Of a DNA stretch of 64,000 bases, positions 5,012-59,341 are shown one piece after another. The translations under genes were made by a program, and so were the position numbers. Location: the NCBI GenBank assembly GCA_951406725.2, contig OX597818.1, positions 58,590,001 through 58,654,000 of the forward strand. Direction: 5' to 3'. The notes below the pieces were generated by a model. It searched no databases, was not told where the DNA came from, and saw only the letters and a list, made by a program, of their open reading frames with translations. Position 1 is the stretch's first letter; each line of letters opens with the position of its first letter. This stretch comes from Octopus vulgaris (taxonomy: Eukaryota).

Positions 5012-5157
5012 TTTATATAAATTTATATATATATTTACTTCGTCATTATATTCACTGCGGGGCTTTTTAACGTGAAGTTTAGACGGGCAATTAAATCGTT
5101 CCTATGCATACGTACATATATATTGTGTATACGTGCGTATATGTAAGTATTCGTATG

Positions 5158-20020: not shown

Positions 20021-20610
20021 ATGGCAGAAACGTTAGCACGCCGGGCGAAATGCTTAGCAGTATTTCATCAGCCGCCTCGTTCTGAGTTCAAATTCCGCCG
20101 AGGTCGACTTTGCCTTTCATCCTTTCGGGGTCGATTAAATAAGTACCAGTTACGCACTGAGGTCGATATAATCGACTTAATCCGTTTGTCTGTCCTTGTT
20201 TGTCCGCTCTGTGTTTAGCCCCTTGTGGGCAGTAAAGAAATAAGTATTCGTCAACCGCTGCGTTCTGAGTTCAAATTCCGCGGAGGTCGAATTTGCCTTT
20301 CATCCTTTCGGGGTCGACTAAATAAGTACCAGTTACACACAGAGGTCGATATAATCGACTTAATCCGTTTGTCTGTCCTTCTTTGTCCGCTCTGTGTTTA
20401 GCCCCTTGTGGGCAGTAAAGAAATAAGTATTCGTCAACCGCTGCGTTCTGAGTTCAAATTCCGCGGAGGTCGAATTTGCCTTTCATCCTTTCGGGGTCGA
20501 TTAAATAAGTACCAGTTACACACTGAGGTCGATATAATCGACTTAATCCGTTTGTCTGTCCTTGTTTGTCCTCTCTATGTTTAGCACCTTGTGCGTAGTA
20601 AAGAAATAGG
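20021..20610 (+). mobile_element. SINE family A trimer
   Basis: Three ~183-bp units behind one head; TSD taattatcatattgat at 20004-20019/20611-20626. Confidence 0.9.
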
Positions 20611-22071
20611 TAATTATCATATTGATTTCGAAAGGATAAATACGGAGTCCACATCGGTGTTACTTGAACTAATACCACACATAGACAGAACAAATACTTC
20701 GGCACTTTTTTTGTATCGCGATAACTACGATTCTACTAGCTTGCCTATTTCAGTTCAGACAATTTGTGTTGCAGGATTCCCTATGGGAAAATGTATGTTA
20801 AACAGATAATGTTACACCTTGGAACGGTCATATTTTTTTGTGATCTGATAACCTGATGGATTCGAGCAACTAATGACCTCCTCGAGAGATGTCTGACCTG
20901 GTGCAGACAATAGAAATCAATTTACAAGTGATACAGCTAGCACGTTCTATACGATAATAATGCCACTCATATGTACTTGTATTTTAATTTCTAGACGGTG
21001 AGAAAAAATATTCTAGTAAAACTGATGCCTATTTAAGGAACTACGTGTTTTGAAAGATAATAGCTAAAGTCGAAATTATATATCTAATTGAATAAAGTAT
21101 TCATTAAACATTGAAAATTAAATCAGGTATATGACTGTAAGTGAATTCCTTCGATCTCTCTCTTGTTTTTCAGATTTCTTCTCGTTCTTCATTCGCAACA
21201 CACACGCACATACATATACATATACGACATGCTCTTGCTCTCACTCTATTTGTCTCTCACCACTCACACAAACACACAGACATACACACACGTATTTGTT
21301 AAGTCTCACTGTCAATGCACGTGCTTATATTTGCACACACAAACATAGATCGAATCCATTCCTGATTTTATCGATCATCTAGATGAATGAGAAACAAAAC
21401 GGGAATTTGAAATCTGGTCGTAACGGAAAGAAATCTATAAAACGACAGCAGTTCAATGAATACAACTATTGACAAGCTTGCCAAACTCAATCATACTGAT
21501 TTCAAAGTTTGGTACAAGGCCAGCAATTACGGGGAAGAAAGTAAGTCGATTACATCAACTGGTACTTATTTTATCGACCCCCGAAAGTAGAAAAGGTGAA
21601 GTTGACCCAGGTGGCATTTAAACTCAGAGCTTAAAGTCAGAAGAAAACGTACTAAGCATTTTTCCTTGCGAGGTATCGAGTCCGCCATCTCGCCGCCTCC
21701 GCAACCTCATTCGTATTATTAACAATATTTCTCAGGTCTTCGCTTTTTAGAAAATAATTTTTCTCACTATGTGTGACATAGATGTGTGCAAATGTTTGAT
21801 GTGTGCAAATGAGTATAAGTGAAATAAAAAATATTTCAACATACACGCCTGTTTTATTTTGAGATTTGCTTTAAAATCATACATTACTGGATAAAAACCG
21901 ACGTCGATATACTCAGCCAAATGCGTTTTGCGACACAATTCCTTCCACGGTATTCAAACAAGCGAGTCGCATCGTATTCCCGATGTCTTGTGTAGTAGAT
22001 ATAATCCATCAGTGAATTTAACACTACTAGACGTGAAGTGCTTTTGAAGGAAATTCTTATTTTACACATTT

Positions 22072-37883: not shown

Positions 37884-37891
<8 letters not shown>
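36977..37891 (+). mobile_element. Non-coding partial-tandem (retrozyme/pLTR-like) element, 780-bp period
   Basis: Identical 135-bp direct repeats at 36977-37111 and 37757-37891, with (TA)n on both sides. A related fragment lies on the minus strand at ~62625-62755. Confidence 0.8.
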
Positions 37892-37945
<54 letters not shown>

Positions 37946-37959
37946 TATACATATATATA

Positions 37960-38187
37960 CAGGGTTGGTCATAAGTCGCCGAAAGTAAATTAAAATGCTA
38001 TAAATACCAACTGCAATTCTGTTTTGACACGAATGGTAACATGTGTCGAAGAAGAAGGATTTTAGTTCGAACAATTTTCCTAATGTTTCATATTTAGATG
38101 CTTTATTATATTCATTCTGTTGTTAAACAGAAGTCTTGAAAGTAAGTGGCTTTAATTTACTGGTCAGGTGACTTTTGTCCAAGCCTG
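37960..38187. mobile_element. Tc1/mariner-type MITE
   Basis: TA|cagggttggtcataagtcgcc ... ggtgacttttgtccaagcctg|TA, imperfect 21-bp TIRs. Confidence 0.65.
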
Positions 38188-38696
38188 TACATACATGTGT
38201 GCTCGCGCGCGTGTTTGTGTCTGTGTGTGTACATAGTTCGAAGCAATACGATATTTTTCTGCGTGGATGATTGCGAATATATTAGGGCGACATCGAACTT
38301 TCAAGAAATAGTCCATCTTAATATAATTAACAGGGAGCTAAGTTATATTAAACAGTATTGAATGAAACTTTCCCAAAATGTTTCTGATTATAACGAATGA
38401 ATCACAACATAAATTTTGTTGGTGTCTTTGTCAGAATTGGAGACACAACTAACTTAGACGTAATTCCTGGGCAGAATTAGCATAACTGGCAGTAACTAAG
38501 CTAGCCGCCTTAATTGCATATACAAACCTTCCGATCATTCTTCACAGGAGCTGTCTTACATCTAAATATGAAACATTAGGAAAATTGTTCGAACTAAAGT
38601 CCTTCTTCTTCGACACATTTTTCCATTCGTGTCAAAACAGAATTGCAGATAGTATTTATGGCATTTTAATTTACTTTCGGCGACTTATGACCAACC

Positions 38697-38773
<77 letters not shown>

Positions 38774-39852
38774 CGGCGGTGCATCAGCATGGCCGCAGCT
38801 CTGAGCTGAAACTAGAAAATATATATATATATATTTATATATATATGAGTGTCTGTGTGTATGAATGTATGTAGGCGCAGAAGTGATTGTGTGGTACGTA
38901 GCTTGCTTACCAGCCACGTGGTTCTGAGTTCAGTCCCACTGCGTGGTATCTTGAGCAAGTCTTTTCTAGTATAGCCTCGAGCCAACCAAAGCCTTGTGAG
39001 CGGATTTGGTACAAGGAAACTTGCACATTTATATCATTCTAAAATAGTTATCTATATATCATACGCAATGTATACAAACTATTGAGAGTCCAGTGTCTGA
39101 TGTATTTGTTCTAAGATAACACTTGTTATAAAATTAGGGAGACAAGTTAAACCAAGTTATGCATCAAAGAGAGACAGAAACTCGTCCTAACAGGGGTTAA
39201 TGAGAATGCAGATATTCATTTCTGCCATTCGGGCCTTTACAGTGATGGCATCAGCGATATGAATTTGTGTCTGATTTTTTGGCTGGCTGCAAAGACGCAT
39301 CACCGAAACGGGCCAAAACAATATAAATGCATCTGATGTTCTAGTTGGTCGCAAATAGTTATTGTGTTTCCAAAACAGCAATCCTGAAGGGAAGTTATCC
39401 CAGTACAAATACAGCCGTTCTATAGTGCCTATACATTAAGTATAATGCCTAGATGGATAAATTCTTTGATTTACGTAATGAGGGATTAACACGTTATGAA
39501 AGCTGTTTGGTTCGGGTGTTCCAACTATTCGAATCCTAGCGGTTGGTTTCCGTTCAAAGGATACAACACAACACACAGGTAATATTGTTTTCTCTTTACT
39601 TAAGGAATCGTTAGAATGGGTTTGATAATTAGCTGTAGTCTGCACAGAAAATGTATCTCAAATTAATTGATTGGTGATCTGTCTCCATTTTCTTTATTTC
39701 ATTTGTTGCGAATTATACACTAATATTTAAAAGCACGAAATTTCTATGGGAAATAAATTTTTCGCAAAACGACAGGAAAATGGAAGTGTATATGACCTGT
39801 TATACAAAGCACAAATGTGAAAAACTTGCTTTCTCCATCTTGTTTGTTGTTA

Positions 39853-39896
39853 ACACAGCATTTCGGCTGATATACCCTCCAGCCTTCATCAGGTGT
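39853..39896 (-). ncRNA. Hammerhead motif in the inverted 5' pLTR (stem III mutated)
   Basis: Minus strand reads acac-CTGATGA-aggctg(gagggtatat)cagcc-GAAA-tgct-gtgt. Confidence 0.6.
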
Positions 39897-40447
39897 CTTG
39901 GGAAAATGATCAAGCTCAGTAACAATCTATTAAGCAACAACTACCCCGAAAACATATTGTCCACTCCAATTAAGAAGAAACGAGAGGATGAAACCAATAA
40001 ACTGTCCCCAGTCTGTCTACCCTATGTGAAAAACCTCTGCGAAAAGATACAAAAGATATGCGGTCTATATGACATCAGGACACTATTCAAGAGTAATACA
40101 ACACTTCGCGAATATCTCCTTCGAGTAAAACCACCAATAGAAGAGAGCGTGATCAAGAACTGCGTGTACTCCATCCCATGCAACTGTGGTAGGTTAGACA
40201 AAGGCGAAATATGCTGCCCCCTCAAAGTAAGGGTAGACGAACATCACAAAGCTGTGACACGGGGAGATACTGATAAATGGGTCATAGCTGATCATGAATG
40301 GAAAACTGGAGACCACCTCCCCCAGTGGGATGAAGTTAAAATTATAGGCAGAGAAAACCACTGGAAAATACGAAAACTAAAAGAGGCAGCGCATATGCTT
40401 GGACACAACAATCTCCTAAGCAGACCGAGTGCAGATATGAAAGCATA

Positions 40448-40698
40448 TACTCTTTTACTTGTTTCAGTCATTTGACTGTGGCCATGCTGGAGCACCACCT
40501 TCAGTCGAGCAAGTCGACCCCAGGACTTATTCTTTGTAAGCCTAGTACTTATATCGGTGTTTTTTGCCGAACCGCTAGTTACGGAGACATAAACACACCA
40601 GTATCGGTTGTCGACCGATGTTGGGGGGACAGACACAAACACATAAATACACACACATACATACATATACATATATATATATATATATATACATATTC

Positions 40699-52624: not shown

Positions 52625-52672
<48 letters not shown>

Positions 52673-52677
52673 GATAA

Positions 52678-52722
<45 letters not shown>

Positions 52723-52733
52723 TATATAGAAGG

Positions 52734-52784
52734 AGCTTCTACAGGACTAGTACTGTTTCATTCAAGAGAAATCTTCAGGAAGCT
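52734..52784 (-). ncRNA. Type I hammerhead ribozyme motif (mirror copy of 58016-58066)
   Basis: Exact reverse complement of 58016-58066. Confidence 0.8.
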
Positions 52785-53171
52785 ATTTAACAAGAATTGT
52801 ATTAGCATTTATACATTTAGGCAGGTTTAAAGGAGTGGTGGTGGGGGACTTTTGGGGGTAGGCATAGCGCAAAATATCATACTTGGGGGAGTGGTCAAGG
52901 AGTCAGTGGTAAGTTAGATGAAAGAATAGATAAATAAAAAAAATAAAAAAATAAAAAAATAAATAAAAAAAAAAAAAATAAATAAAAAAAAAATAAATAA
53001 AAAATATAAAAAATATATATAAAAAAATATATATATATAAAATATATATATAAAAAATATATATATAAAAAAAGGGGGGATAGAGTTATAGGTAAATAAG
53101 GAGATTCTCACTTATACCTATACACACATGTATACGTATCTACACACACATACATACATACACATATATAT

Positions 53172-53236
<65 letters not shown>

Positions 53237-54104
53237 CACACATACATACATATCTACATACACACATACATACACCCGCCCACATATACAAATTTATACA
53301 CATGCACATGCCTATACCTGTCTACACATACACACACGTATATATGCATACACTCACTCCCATGCATGCACGCATACACACATGTATATATATATATATA
53401 TATACCCACGACCACACATACATATATACACATAAAAATATATATTCATACGCACATACACTCATGCACACACAACACACCTAGTTCCCTATATACACAT
53501 ATTTACACCTATATATACATACACCCACATACACCTATGTACACATATATATATAAACATATACACGCATACATATATATACATGTGTGCACATACATAC
53601 ATACACACATATATACATACACATACACATACACATGTGTACCTATACATACCTACACATACACACATACATACATACAAATATACGTATACATATATAT
53701 ATATACAATCCAATACAGGCCCATTCCCTAATTTTAATTTTATTATCTTCATTTATTACTTTTGTTATCTTTGATCGCTAGAACTAAGAATCCTGGCAAT
53801 GGCTGCATGTCCATTTGTCTGTCTACTAGAAGGCAAGTACTCATTCCCGCACGCACACTCATTAGCACGTACATTCACCCATTCGTACACTCATACACAT
53901 ACACGTACGCACGCGTTATATTCATACATACAAACATCTACATACGTTCACGTATATACACATACGTACTCGTACCTACAGATTCGTGTCTACACTTTAG
54001 GAGGCTAGTCTATACATATACACCAATAAATATACATATATATATATATATACCCACATATACATACACACACACACATATATACTCCTACATACAGATA
54101 CATA

Positions 54105-54152
<48 letters not shown>

Positions 54153-54644
54153 CACACACATACACACATACACATACACACACACATACATACACATATA
54201 TATACATACACAAACATATATACACACATATATATATACATACACACATACACACATACATACGTATACGTACATACATACATCCATACATCCATACTTA
54301 CATGCATTTATACGCATACACACACCCATCTATATATATGTATATATATATATATATATATACACACTCACACATACATATACAAATCTACGCACACACA
54401 TACATACATACACGTATACGCATACACGCACATACACATATACATGCGTACCCATACACATGCACACACGCACGCGCATCCATATATATACACACACACA
54501 CATATATATACACGTGTGCAAGCATACATACATACTCATACGCGCACACATACTTACATATACATATATGCACACACTTACACACATATATATACATACA
54601 CATATACATGCATACATACATATATGCATACATACACACACGCA

Positions 54645-54704
<60 letters not shown>

Positions 54705-54755
54705 TACATATATATACATACATACATATACACATACATACACATACACATACAT

Positions 54756-54802
<47 letters not shown>

Positions 54803-55004
54803 ACATATATACACATATACATACATATACATACACACACACATACATATATACATATACACTGATACACATACCCATACATACACATGCATATACTTAT
54901 ATCACTACATACTCACATATATAAACATATATACATATACACACATACATATATACATGTACATACACATACGTATGCATATATATATATACATATATAT
55001 ACAC

Positions 55005-55041
<37 letters not shown>

Positions 55042-55297
55042 TACATATACACATATACATGTATACATACGCAAAAATGATACACATATATACACATACA
55101 CACACACAGACAGATGCATATACATACATATATATATATAAACTACATATCTATATAAATACATACATAATACACATATACACACACATATATATACATT
55201 CATGCATATACATATACAAGTATACATACACATACACACACACACGCGCACACATACACATACACACACACACACACAAATACATACATACACACAT

Positions 55298-55328
<31 letters not shown>

Positions 55329-55459
55329 CATACATGTACACATATACATATGCATATATATATCAACAAGGGAGGGTAAAGTTAATTAGTTATTAATCAG
55401 TTATTAACTAATTAACTTTACCCTCCCTTGTTATGTATATATATATATATGTATATGTG

Positions 55460-55492
<33 letters not shown>

Positions 55493-55749
55493 ATGTATGT
55501 ATTTGTATATGTGTGTGTGTATATGTATGTGTGCACGTGTGTGTGTATGTATGTGTATGTATACTTGTATATGTATATGCATGATGTATATATATGTGTG
55601 TGTATATGTGTATTATGTATGTATTTATATAGATATGTAGTTTATATTTATATATATATATGTATGTATATGCATCTGTCTGTGTGTGTGTATGTGTATA
55701 TATGTGTATCATTTTTGCGTATGTATACATGTATATGTGTATATGTATA

Positions 55750-55784
<35 letters not shown>

Positions 55785-55989
55785 GTGTATATATATGTAT
55801 ATATATATATATGCATACGTATGTGTATGTACATGTATATATGTATGTGTGTATATGTATATATGTTTATATATGTGAGTATGTAGTGATATAAGTATAT
55901 GCATGTGTATGTATGGGTATGTGTATCAGTGTATATGTATATATGTATGTGTGTGTGTATGTATATGTATGTATATGTGTATATATGTA

Positions 55990-56030
<41 letters not shown>

Positions 56031-56091
56031 GTATATGTGTGTATGTATGTGTATGTGTATGTATGTGTATATATATCTATATATGTATATA

Positions 56092-56141
<50 letters not shown>

Positions 56142-56642
56142 TGCGTGTGTGTATGTATGCATATATGTATGTATGCATGTATATGTGTATGTATATATAT
56201 GTGTGTAAGTGTGTGCATATATGTACTTGTAAGTATGTGTGCGCGTATGAGTATGTATGTATGCTTGCACACGTGTATATATATGTGTGTGTGTGTATAT
56301 ATATGGATGCGCGTGCGTGTGTGCACGTGTATGGGTACGCATGTATATGTGTATGTGCGTGTATGCGTATACGTGTATGTATGTATGTGTGTGCGTAGAT
56401 TTGTATATGTATGTGTGAGTGTGTATATATATATATATATATATACATATATATAGATGGGTGTGTGTATGCGTATAAATGCATGTAAGTATGGATGTAT
56501 GTATGTATGTATGTACGTATACGTATGTATGTGTGTATGTGTGTATGTATATATATATGTGTGTATATATGTTTGTGTATGTATATATATGTGTATGTAT
56601 GTGTGTGTATATGTATGTGTGTGTGTGTATGTGTGTGTGTAT

Positions 56643-56695
<53 letters not shown>

Positions 56696-57567
56696 TATGT
56701 ATCTGTATGTAGGAGTATATATGTGTGTGTGTGTATGTATATGTGGGTATATATATATATATATGTATATTTATTGGTGTATATGTATAGACTAGCCTCC
56801 TAAAGTGTAGACACGAATCTGTAGGTACGAGTACGTATGTGTATATACGTGAACGTATGTAGATGTTTGTATGTATGAATATAACGCGTGCGTACGTGTA
56901 TGTGTATGAGTGTACGAATGGGTGAATGTACGTGCTAATGAGTGTGCGTGCGGGAATGAGTACTTGCCTTCTAGTAGACAGACAAATGGACATGCAGCCA
57001 TTGCCAGGATTCTTAGTTCTAGCGATCAAAGATAACAAAAGTAATAAATGAAGATAATAAAATTAAAATTAGGGAATGGGCCTGTATTGGATTGTATATA
57101 TATATATGTATACGTATATTTGTATGTATGTATGTGTGTATGTGTAGGTATGTATAGGTACACATGTGTATGTGTATGTGTATGTATATATGTGTGTATG
57201 TATGTATGTGCACACATGTATATATATGTATGCGTGTATATGTTTATATATATATGTGTACATAGGTGTATGTGGGTGTATGTATATATAGGTGTAAATA
57301 TGTGTATATAGGGAACTAGGTGTGTTGTGTGTGCATGAGTGTATGTGCGTATGAATATATATTTTTATGTGTATATATGTATGTGTGGTCGTGGGTATAT
57401 ATATATATATATATACATGTGTGTATGCGTGCATGCATGGGAGTGAGTGTATGCATATATACGTGTGTGTATGTGTAGACAGGTATAGGCATGTGCATGT
57501 GTATAAATTTGTATATGTGGGCGGGTGTATGTATGTGTGTATGTAGATATGTATGTATGTGTGTATA

Positions 57568-57622
<55 letters not shown>

Positions 57623-58015
57623 ATATATATGTGTATGTATGTATGTGTGTGTAGATACGTATACATGTGTGTATAGGTATAAGTGAGAATCTCCTTATTT
57701 ACCTATAACTCTATCCCCTCATTTTTTTATATATATATTTTTATATATATATTTTATATATATTTTTTTTTATATATATTTTTTATATTTTTTATTTTTT
57801 TATTTTTTTATTTTATTTTTTTTATTTTTTTATTTTTTATTTTTTAATTTTTTTTTTTTTTTTATTTATCTATTCTTTCATCTAACTTACCACTGACTCC
57901 TTGACCACTCCCCCAAGTATGATATTTTGCGCTATGCCTACCCCCAAAAAGTCCCCCACCACCACTCCTTTAAACCTGCCTAAATGTATAAATGCTAATA
58001 CAATTCTTGTTAAAT

Positions 58016-58066
58016 AGCTTCCTGAAGATTTCTCTTGAATGAAACAGTACTAGTCCTGTAGAAGCT
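58016..58066 (+). ncRNA. Type I hammerhead ribozyme motif
   Basis: agcttc-CTGAAGA-t.ttc(tctt)gaa.t-GAAA-cag(tactagtc)ctg-TA-gaagct: 6-bp stem I, full core, near-palindromic stem III, predicted cleavage after A58060. The closing pair of stem II is a U.U mismatch. Confidence 0.8.
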
Positions 58067-58149
58067 CCTTCTTTATAATAAATTAATTTTACTCTGCTAT
58101 GTATTGAGTACCTTACTTACTGTGGTTAACCCCGAATCAACCCGGGACC

Positions 58150-58184
<35 letters not shown>

Positions 58185-58188
<4 letters not shown>

Positions 58189-58588
58189 CTTTACTGCTCA
58201 CAAGGGGCTAAATATAGAAGTGACAAACAAGGACAGACAAAGGGATTAAGTCGATTACATCGACCCCAGTGCGAAACTGGTACTTATTTAATCGACCTCG
58301 AAAGGATGAAAGGCAGTCGACCTCGGCCGAATTTGAACTCGGAATGTAACGACAGACGAAATATCTATTTCTTTATTACCCACAAGAGGCTAAAAATAGA
58401 GTGGACAAACAAGGATAGACATAGGTATTAAGTCAATTACATCGACCTCGTGCGAAACTGGTACTTATTTAATCGACCCCGAAAGGATGAAAGGCAAAGT
58501 CGACCTCGGCGGAATTTGAACTCAGAACGTAACGGCAAATGAAATACCGCTAAGCATTTCGCCCGGCGCGCTAACCTTTCTGCCAGCT
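58185..58588 (-). mobile_element. SINE family A dimer
   Basis: Two units; another head fragment at ~58720-58830. Confidence 0.88.
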
Positions 58589-59341
58589 CAATGCGAGTGT
58601 TTCAGAATGATGCAACACTTTTAAGACTAATTAACTCACTATCTGTCTTTTAAATTTTTCTTTCTTTTTAAAAATTATTGTACAGGTGTGTCAATTTAAA
58701 CCACTGCAACTCTCATTCCGAAAGGACGAAAGATGAAGTCGAGCTCGGCGGAATTTGAACTCTGAACGTAAACACAGACGAAATGCAACTAAATATTTCG
58801 CTCAGCGTGCTAACGATTCTGCCAGCTCTCCACCGTTCCCAGATAAAATATCACATTATCGATCTTCTATAGCTCGTAGCAGAAGTCATTTTTTTTTTAC
58901 TCTTGTGATTTTTTTTCTCAAGCTTAATGAATTTTATTTGAAGCATGGTTTTCAACTCCGTTCTTCTTTCTAACCATCTTCCACATATGCTTTCCTGTCT
59001 AACTCCAATCGTTTGTGTTTTACTTCTCATTAATAACGTCTCACACATCTAACTGTAATAATTTATTTGATATTTGACCCATAATGGAGCTAATGTACTT
59101 CATTATTTTATATATAATTTCATCTTTAGTGAAATACAGCTAAACACACAGACACACACCGACGCTGACACAGACACAGGACACACACACACAAACACGC
59201 GTATATGTCTATATACACATAAATATATGTGTGTCTGCATTGTGTTCTATTTGTTATTTGGTTCTAACAAACCAATATACATATATGCATGTATCATACA
59301 TACACACCTGTATATATATATATATATATATACATACAGTT

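Follow-up and report, generated by a model that had tools for sequence, protein, structure and literature searches.

Head-to-head copies of a probable Hydra-clade Penelope-like element form a long palindrome in the Octopus vulgaris genome

The DNA analysed here is a stretch of 64 000 nucleotides from Octopus vulgaris (contig OX597818.1, positions 58,590,001 to 58,654,000 of the forward strand; hereafter, the window), and its subject is the palindrome at 52717-58153, in which two copies of the 3' part of a Penelope-like element (PLE) lie head-to-head between two (TA)n runs. The original prediction, drawn from the letters alone, described a palindrome with a 12-nt loop, an outward-pointing hammerhead at each end and a complete 3' tail on the right arm only, and all these features are real, the hammerheads as motifs. 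Both arms consist of the 3' untranslated region (UTR) and the pseudo-long terminal repeat (pLTR) of the element, and they end at two different sites, a short one (A) and a tailed one (B):

52626..52716, no strand: left target flank, a (TA)n-(GA)n-(TA)n microsatellite by sequence
52717..55399, minus strand: left arm, an inverted copy of the 3' UTR and pLTR that ends at the short (A) site, without the tail
52734..52784, minus strand: left-arm candidate hammerhead with the full core motif; predicted cut between 52740 and 52739
55400..55404, no strand: head-to-head junction, five bases outside the family reference that repeat the adjoining left-arm sequence, within the 12-nt loop (55393-55404) at an AT-rich quasi-palindrome
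55405..58153, plus strand: right arm, a 5'-truncated sense copy (distal 3' UTR, pLTR and tail) of a probable Hydra-clade PLE that ends at the tailed (B) site
55432..57870, plus strand: microsatellite-rich (TA/TG) 3' UTR body with unique islands, common to sister copies
58016..58066, plus strand: right-arm candidate hammerhead of the Hydra type, with the full core motif; predicted cut after 58060
58084..58153, plus strand: 70-nt tail between the fixed end sites A (~58083) and B (58153), on the right arm only
58154..58186, no strand: right target flank, (TA)n

In a global alignment of the arms, for which the inner boundaries differ slightly, 2579 of the 2724 columns match (~95%), with 62 substitutions and 14 gaps, and nearly all mismatches are located in simple repeats, in agreement with the earlier statement that the arms differ by repeat-length changes and a few substitutions; in the non-repeat sequence, the arms are unlike at four of the 1236 bases compared. 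Self-complementary stems close the loop and, read against the family reference, the junction consists of the left arm, five additional bases and the right arm. The flanks of the palindrome show no mirror symmetry. The arm difference that the original prediction cited as an example (~54559 versus ~56227) exists and falls on a 2-base haplotype-diagnostic site, at which the left arm carries the allele of the haplotype that it otherwise matches and the right arm carries the majority allele; gene conversion, a template switch or assembly polishing could each be the cause. The protein of the family has no tblastn match in the window, and the copy in the window lacks an open reading frame (ORF).

The source element and its family

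The body of the palindrome is multi-copy and is found at other loci, that is, it is not single-copy local sequence. There are 939 candidates for the 281-nt end of the element, and the 40 that were scored are all ~100% identical; exact patterns detect 2203 tailed (B) ends and 539 short (A) ends, the latter number being a floor because the short-end pattern misses a common loop variant. The longer copies continue past the body into an ORF that encodes a reverse transcriptase (RT) and a GIY-YIG domain; in these copies, body and ORF are collinear and contiguous, with truncation points that vary by locus, and the window copy is simply cut ~0.6 kb behind the stop codon. A tandem copy defines a unit of 5187 nt, with the ATG at 42, the stop codon near 2180, the ribozyme near 5050-5100 and the tail extending to 5187. 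The TA/TG-rich 3' UTR spans 2.9 kb in this unit and ~3.2 kb in the variant found in the window. Several parts of the original interpretation have stood: the sequence is of PLE origin, its body recurs, and the dimer took its inverted form during insertion, as an extreme case of the inverted 5' copy. The ‘non-autonomous derivative' with microsatellite cargo has not stood, the body being the native 3' UTR of an autonomous element. The copies are variable truncations of an ORF-bearing unit, so that they constitute neither the defined short ORF-less unit nor the tandem array by which a non-autonomous PLE or a non-LTR retrozyme would be recognized.

Open frames of 718 and 722 amino acids are present (at loci L077 and L219, respectively). 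The 718-residue frame contains RWR at 43 (RWK in most of the aligned homologs), DKT at 121, YRDD at 352, the linker CNCHDKTTC at 572, which has the form CxCx5C, with no CX2-5CxxC, YIG at 608, and the C-terminal CDLC at 672 (CxxC) and CMH at 700 (CxH). By inspection, the segment that separates the GIY strand from the YIG strand lacks a pair of cysteines, and a loose CCHH pattern matched solely the C-terminal CxxC...CxH stretch. The 1086 homologs are ~700 amino acids long, and some carry a precomputed PF01541 assignment; neither the ORF nor its alignment gave a meaningful match in sequence scans against Pfam and PDB, so that the domain calls rest on motifs.

The Hydra clade of PLEs is defined by RWK and DKT, the CxCx5C linker in place of CX2-5CxxC, CxxC and CxH flanking the conserved E and N, and a (TA)n target (PMC8557442). 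The family described here has a single ORF with RT and C-terminal GIY-YIG, the RW[K/R] motif and the change of DKG to DKT, the CxCx5C linker, CxxC/CxH without an internal CCHH motif, insertion into (TA)n and a hammerhead motif in the pLTR. Members of the clade, including Hydra-1_Obim and Penelope-13_HM, share the order of RT and GIY-YIG, RW[K/R], DKT, CxCx5C, CxxC and CxH, as well as the (TA)n target and a pLTR hammerhead, which in many of the listed cases has U.U at the base of stem II (PMC8557442). On the strength of these motifs, the source of the palindrome is almost certainly a young autonomous element of the Hydra clade. It departs from the clade in not being ‘generally short (<3 kb)': the unit is 5.2-5.5 kb long, compared with 1.1-3.0 kb in all 27 listed Hydra families (PMC8557442), and the surplus of the 5187-nt unit is entirely UTR. 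The distance from stop codon to ribozyme is 2.9-3.2 kb of microsatellite, compared with 128-218 nt in metagenomic relatives, that is, a UTR more than 10 times longer. The ribozyme is unlike that of Hydra-1_Obim, so that this is a different family.

The core of the hammerhead motif is complete (CUGAAGA...GAAA...GUA), with 6 bp in stem I, 3 bp in stem II and 4 bp in stem III; in the right arm, stem III is ACAG/CUGU and the base of stem II is U.U, in place of the missing G10.1-C11.1. Rfam yields no hammerhead match at either the gathering or the E-value thresholds, and the fold is no more stable than shuffled sequences (z = 0.26), so that the hammerhead call rests on motif and position. The predicted cut lies 133 nt upstream of the ATG, compared with 142-147 nt in relatives. 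A motif is present in 14 of 77 contigs, 13 times at a pLTR position, and in none of the 231 shuffles; in one relative (L194), it is identical to that listed for Penelope-1_NV, a listed Hydra member (PMC8557442), and many listed Hydra ribozymes share the U.U at the base of stem II (PMC8557442). The motif is a candidate type I ribozyme, with self-cleavage as a prediction.

The palindrome had also been proposed to yield double-stranded RNA, a possible substrate of ADAR or source of small interfering RNA. This is geometrically possible: in the computed folds, the ribozyme would be buried once a read-through transcript had paired with itself, the arm-arm duplex over the ribozyme having -128 kcal/mol compared with -8.7 kcal/mol for the ribozyme fold. 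Among the 99 variants between copies, nine are A>G and 21 are T>C, with no A>G excess of the kind expected from A-to-I editing of copied templates.

Two UTR islands (plus strand, 52810-52915 and 53730-53840), read antisense to the element, resemble small exons by eye, with a pyrimidine tract-AG on one side and GTAAGT or GCAAGT on the other. The UTR may derive from intron-exon DNA that was captured, or a spliced antisense transcript may arise from it. An older, diverged subfamily (L127, L135, L136 and L139) has a different AT-rich stretch before the pLTR. A search of sequencing runs gave 20 matches in 10 studies, all of them as short-read contigs, with no RNA dataset among the matches listed.

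End sites, arm lengths and shared haplotypes

The element has two fixed end sites: site A is located ~23 nt downstream of the predicted cut, with site B another 70 nt along. Both are short TA-like motifs, and both are joined to (TA)n. Among the 39 other best B-ended matches, of which 34 were viewed over 10 kb and five over 1.5 kb, and which as a set are biased to long copies, 33 have an inverted arm, and all 33 of these arms end at A. The first 24 exact B ends on one contig (C1) comprise 15 inverted, four non-inverted and five undecided cases, the 15 being mostly 0.2-kb mini-palindromes, with one paired by coordinates only. When loci were picked on the RT/ORF alone, 14 of 16 proved to be inverted, 11 of them A/B, three A/A and none B/B. 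The palindrome is the usual insertion form of the family rather than a one-off; head-to-head insertion into (TA)n is common, and the palindromes reach ~8-9 kb.

A second young Hydra-like family in the same genome (loci L230-L249 of G000, e.g. L239:2956-6386) has a unit of 3431 nt with a UTR of 1.1 kb, a tail of 72 nt and open 727-codon frames in many copies. Of its ORF-picked loci, 14 of 20 are inverted, all 14 of the A/B type (chance 6e-5 at p = 0.5). No B/B palindrome was seen in the loci counted in either family, and a candidate on C1 (L108) dissolved into an A/B palindrome and a separate B end.

The arms differ in length in both directions. In the 30 B-selected loci, the A arm is >100 nt longer in seven and the B arm in 12, and the arms are within 100 nt of each other in 11, with arm reach read at unique anchors and junctions within repeats blurred; in the second family, the tail-less (A) arm is the longer one in eight of 14. 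Junctions in unique sequence show short palindromes (AGGCCT, AGCT, ATAT), overlaps of 0-6 nt or short inserts, and the mini-palindromes have a fold hotspot at the AGCT of hammerhead stem I.

The two arms of a locus share haplotype, which points to one template. Over 29,868 bp in the 30 loci, 20 private and 29 minor alleles are common to both partner arms, whereas partners differ at 23 private sites and one segregating site, and the mean distance between arms is 0.0009 within loci compared with 0.0039 between loci; in the second family, k-mers private to the arm pair are found in eight of 12 loci. The shared alleles rule out separate source RNAs for the two arms.

Target-site duplications, which in (TA)n are mostly unreadable, were sought in 30 loci, with one clear case (L037, ~38 nt plus TA runs) and two simple-repeat matches. 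In L053, the A end is adjoined by 20 nt or more of the right flank in inverted orientation. At four loci (L050, L083, L120 and L244), a copy has landed in an earlier copy, either at its (TA)n junction or in the (TA)n of the element's own UTR, and these nested insertions include the first family beside the second one.

Priming on one RNA and the alternatives

The palindrome probably arose when both cut strands of the target were primed on a single RNA of the element and the two complementary DNAs (cDNAs) were joined, a reading to which we assign a probability of about 0.65. Its steps are all inferred from the observed family, ORF, UTR, end sites, A/B pairing, arm lengths and shared haplotype. 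The GIY-YIG domain would cut both strands of (TA)n, synthesis in the pLTR RNA would begin at start site B for one target 3' end and at start site A for the other, and both cDNAs would run 5'-ward, often halting at a common block, for example, stem I of the ribozyme. The cDNAs would then be joined head-to-head via short self-complementary or microhomologous ends, with the second strands filled in by repair, and the palindrome would be a by-product of transposition, with no host function implied. Twin priming of this type would leave one tail, either arm as the longer one and a single haplotype. In the twin priming of LINE-1, both target ends prime on one RNA and the 5' inversion is joined by microhomology; there, the second primer anneals far upstream, so that nothing is duplicated, whereas here a distance of 70 nt, at the 3' end, would separate the two starts, and everything that is copied would be present twice, as a palindrome. 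For a Poseidon PLE in vitro, both target strands are cut and extended, two internal RNA start sites bound the tail with no strand preference per site, and the protein is modelled as a dimer (PMC11167929); twin priming at A and B fits these data on another PLE.

Several observations weigh against this reading. Three of the 14 ORF-picked palindromes are A/A, and some A or B ends are unpaired. Near-symmetric junctions (<=30 nt) make up nine of the 30 loci, compared with 1.2 expected by permutation, an excess for which twin priming needs a shared stop point and which fold-back of a single cDNA explains as easily. Once microsatellites are counted as well, an arm has its own partner as nearest neighbour in no more than 13 of 22 loci, and the palindrome of the window is not one of these; its arms also differ at the sole segregating site that separates partner arms among the 30 loci, and one locus of the second family (L233) shares more with another locus than its own arms share with each other. 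The shared alleles could also be explained by arm-off-arm copying, gene conversion or assembly polishing. The in vitro data come from another clade, in which the start site is not homologous to the target (PMC11167929). Finally, the frame of most ORF-bearing copies is shifted by one base at a C-run (112 versus 22 sites); this is likely to be a read error, and because of it the number of intact copies is uncertain. A programmed frameshift at the C-run is not favoured, given that runs of either length are found and that, at L072, the arms of the locus do not agree with each other.

An alternative that we consider unlikely is that a single B-primed cDNA snaps back and is copied to site A, then pairs with the other (TA)n end, with the arm asymmetry produced by later deletions at the centre, where palindromes are prone to deletion. 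The surplus of near-symmetric junctions, to which that of the window belongs, the mini-palindrome hotspot and the private alleles common to both arms all agree with such a fold-back. It is disfavoured because plain fold-back of a B-primed cDNA cannot make the A arm the longer one, and the tail is absent from any cDNA primed at A; A-long/B-short copies (e.g. L045, L060, L066 and L231) are nevertheless common, several A arms exceed the whole unit, and larger palindromes with multi-kb deletions would be needed to account for them. Centres with no loop at all (L033, L031) are also hard to obtain from an intramolecular hairpin. Self-priming on an antisense template, with the resulting hairpin resolved by a staggered cut of the endonuclease that leaves the tail on one end, has been proposed for PLEs (PMC3846280, PMC8557442) and would likewise account for an A end paired with a B end and for the single haplotype, and the exon-like signals that the eye picks out in the UTR islands, read antisense, may be cited in its favour. 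We regard it as improbable: with a fixed template polarity, the longer arm should carry one end type throughout, whereas both occur, and the two ends of the tail correspond in vitro to start sites of the RT rather than to a cut in the element (PMC11167929).

The two explanations that remain concern the nature of the sequence rather than the path of its synthesis. A separate non-autonomous PLE derivative with captured microsatellite cargo might be suggested by the absence of the ORF from the window copy and by the spacer capture behind the PLE ORF in rotifer Pen1 (PMC3846280), and the UTR itself may originate as captured host DNA; as a separate family, such a derivative is contradicted by the contiguity of body and ORF and by the varying truncation points, and is very improbable. 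An artefact of fold-back reads or assembly, or a plain local inverted duplication, is scarcely credible. The homopolymer-type frameshifts do suggest residual read error in the assembly, but the flanks are unmirrored, the body is multi-copy, and the 70-nt end asymmetry recurs at dozens of loci in two families.

Twin priming may extend beyond this locus. We lean slightly towards head-to-head insertion being the normal Penelope-type outcome, whereby a dimeric RT-endonuclease would prime both target ends at two start sites on a single RNA and leave one signature, namely, the tail, the inverted copy and kilobase-scale palindromes; in this genome, a Hydra element with a 3-kb UTR would have seeded hundreds of near-perfect palindromes of up to ~9 kb.

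Relation to known insertions, and neighbouring features

PLEs with inverted 5' copies, palindromes at the junctions and a tail on one side are known from earlier work. Penelope-13_HM has a 966-nt inverted 5' copy (PMC8557442), and PLEs with an inverted pLTR show the same inverted 5'-truncated copy, tail at one end, junction palindromes and partial tandems (PMC3846280; PMC8557442, Fig. 2). In comparison with those elements, the tail is 70-72 nt rather than 30-40 nt long, the inverted copy is kilobases long and is found in most long insertions, and A/B pairing, arm lengths and haplotypes are counted in the present analysis. The Poseidon element PAc of Anolis shares the two fixed start sites that bound the tail downstream of the hammerhead, an AT-rich target and the extension of both strands, whereas it belongs to another clade, and here both start sites precede the ATG and have TA-like microhomology to the target (PMC11167929). 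Inverted insertions are not discussed in the main text of that study (PMC11167929). What appears to be new is the doubling of element length by a microsatellite UTR, palindromes of ~8-9 kb as a common insertion form, and rules from two families that tie the tail to the inversion. A literature search that did not include Repbase and covered few subscription papers found neither twin priming proposed for PLE inversions nor a description of this family; a prior description may exist.

The origin of the tandem and inverted structures of PLEs is named as an open task by Craig et al. 2021 (PMC8557442), and the later insertion steps are left unvalidated by the in vitro study (PMC11167929). The countable rules from two young families link the two-site initiation seen in vitro to the inverted structure, and would explain this long-unexplained feature of PLEs if both cut ends are primed on the same RNA; they also make specific predictions for the mutation of each start site. 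In addition, they point to a source of long, near-perfect genomic palindromes and to a route by which microsatellites spread, each long copy adding ~3 kb of TA/TG repeats, among them (TA)n runs, the target of these elements.

Elsewhere in the window, the segments 58187-58590 and 20059-20612 are partial tandem copies of other abundant dispersed repeats, and the first of these adjoins the right (TA)n target of the palindrome. The plus-strand 265-codon open stretch at 39678-40472, which has no match to the protein of the palindrome family, resembles what we take to be the C-terminus of a decayed retroelement RT. An element resembling a miniature inverted-repeat transposable element, with terminal inverted repeats of ~210 nt and (TA)n on both sides, lies at 37889-38770.

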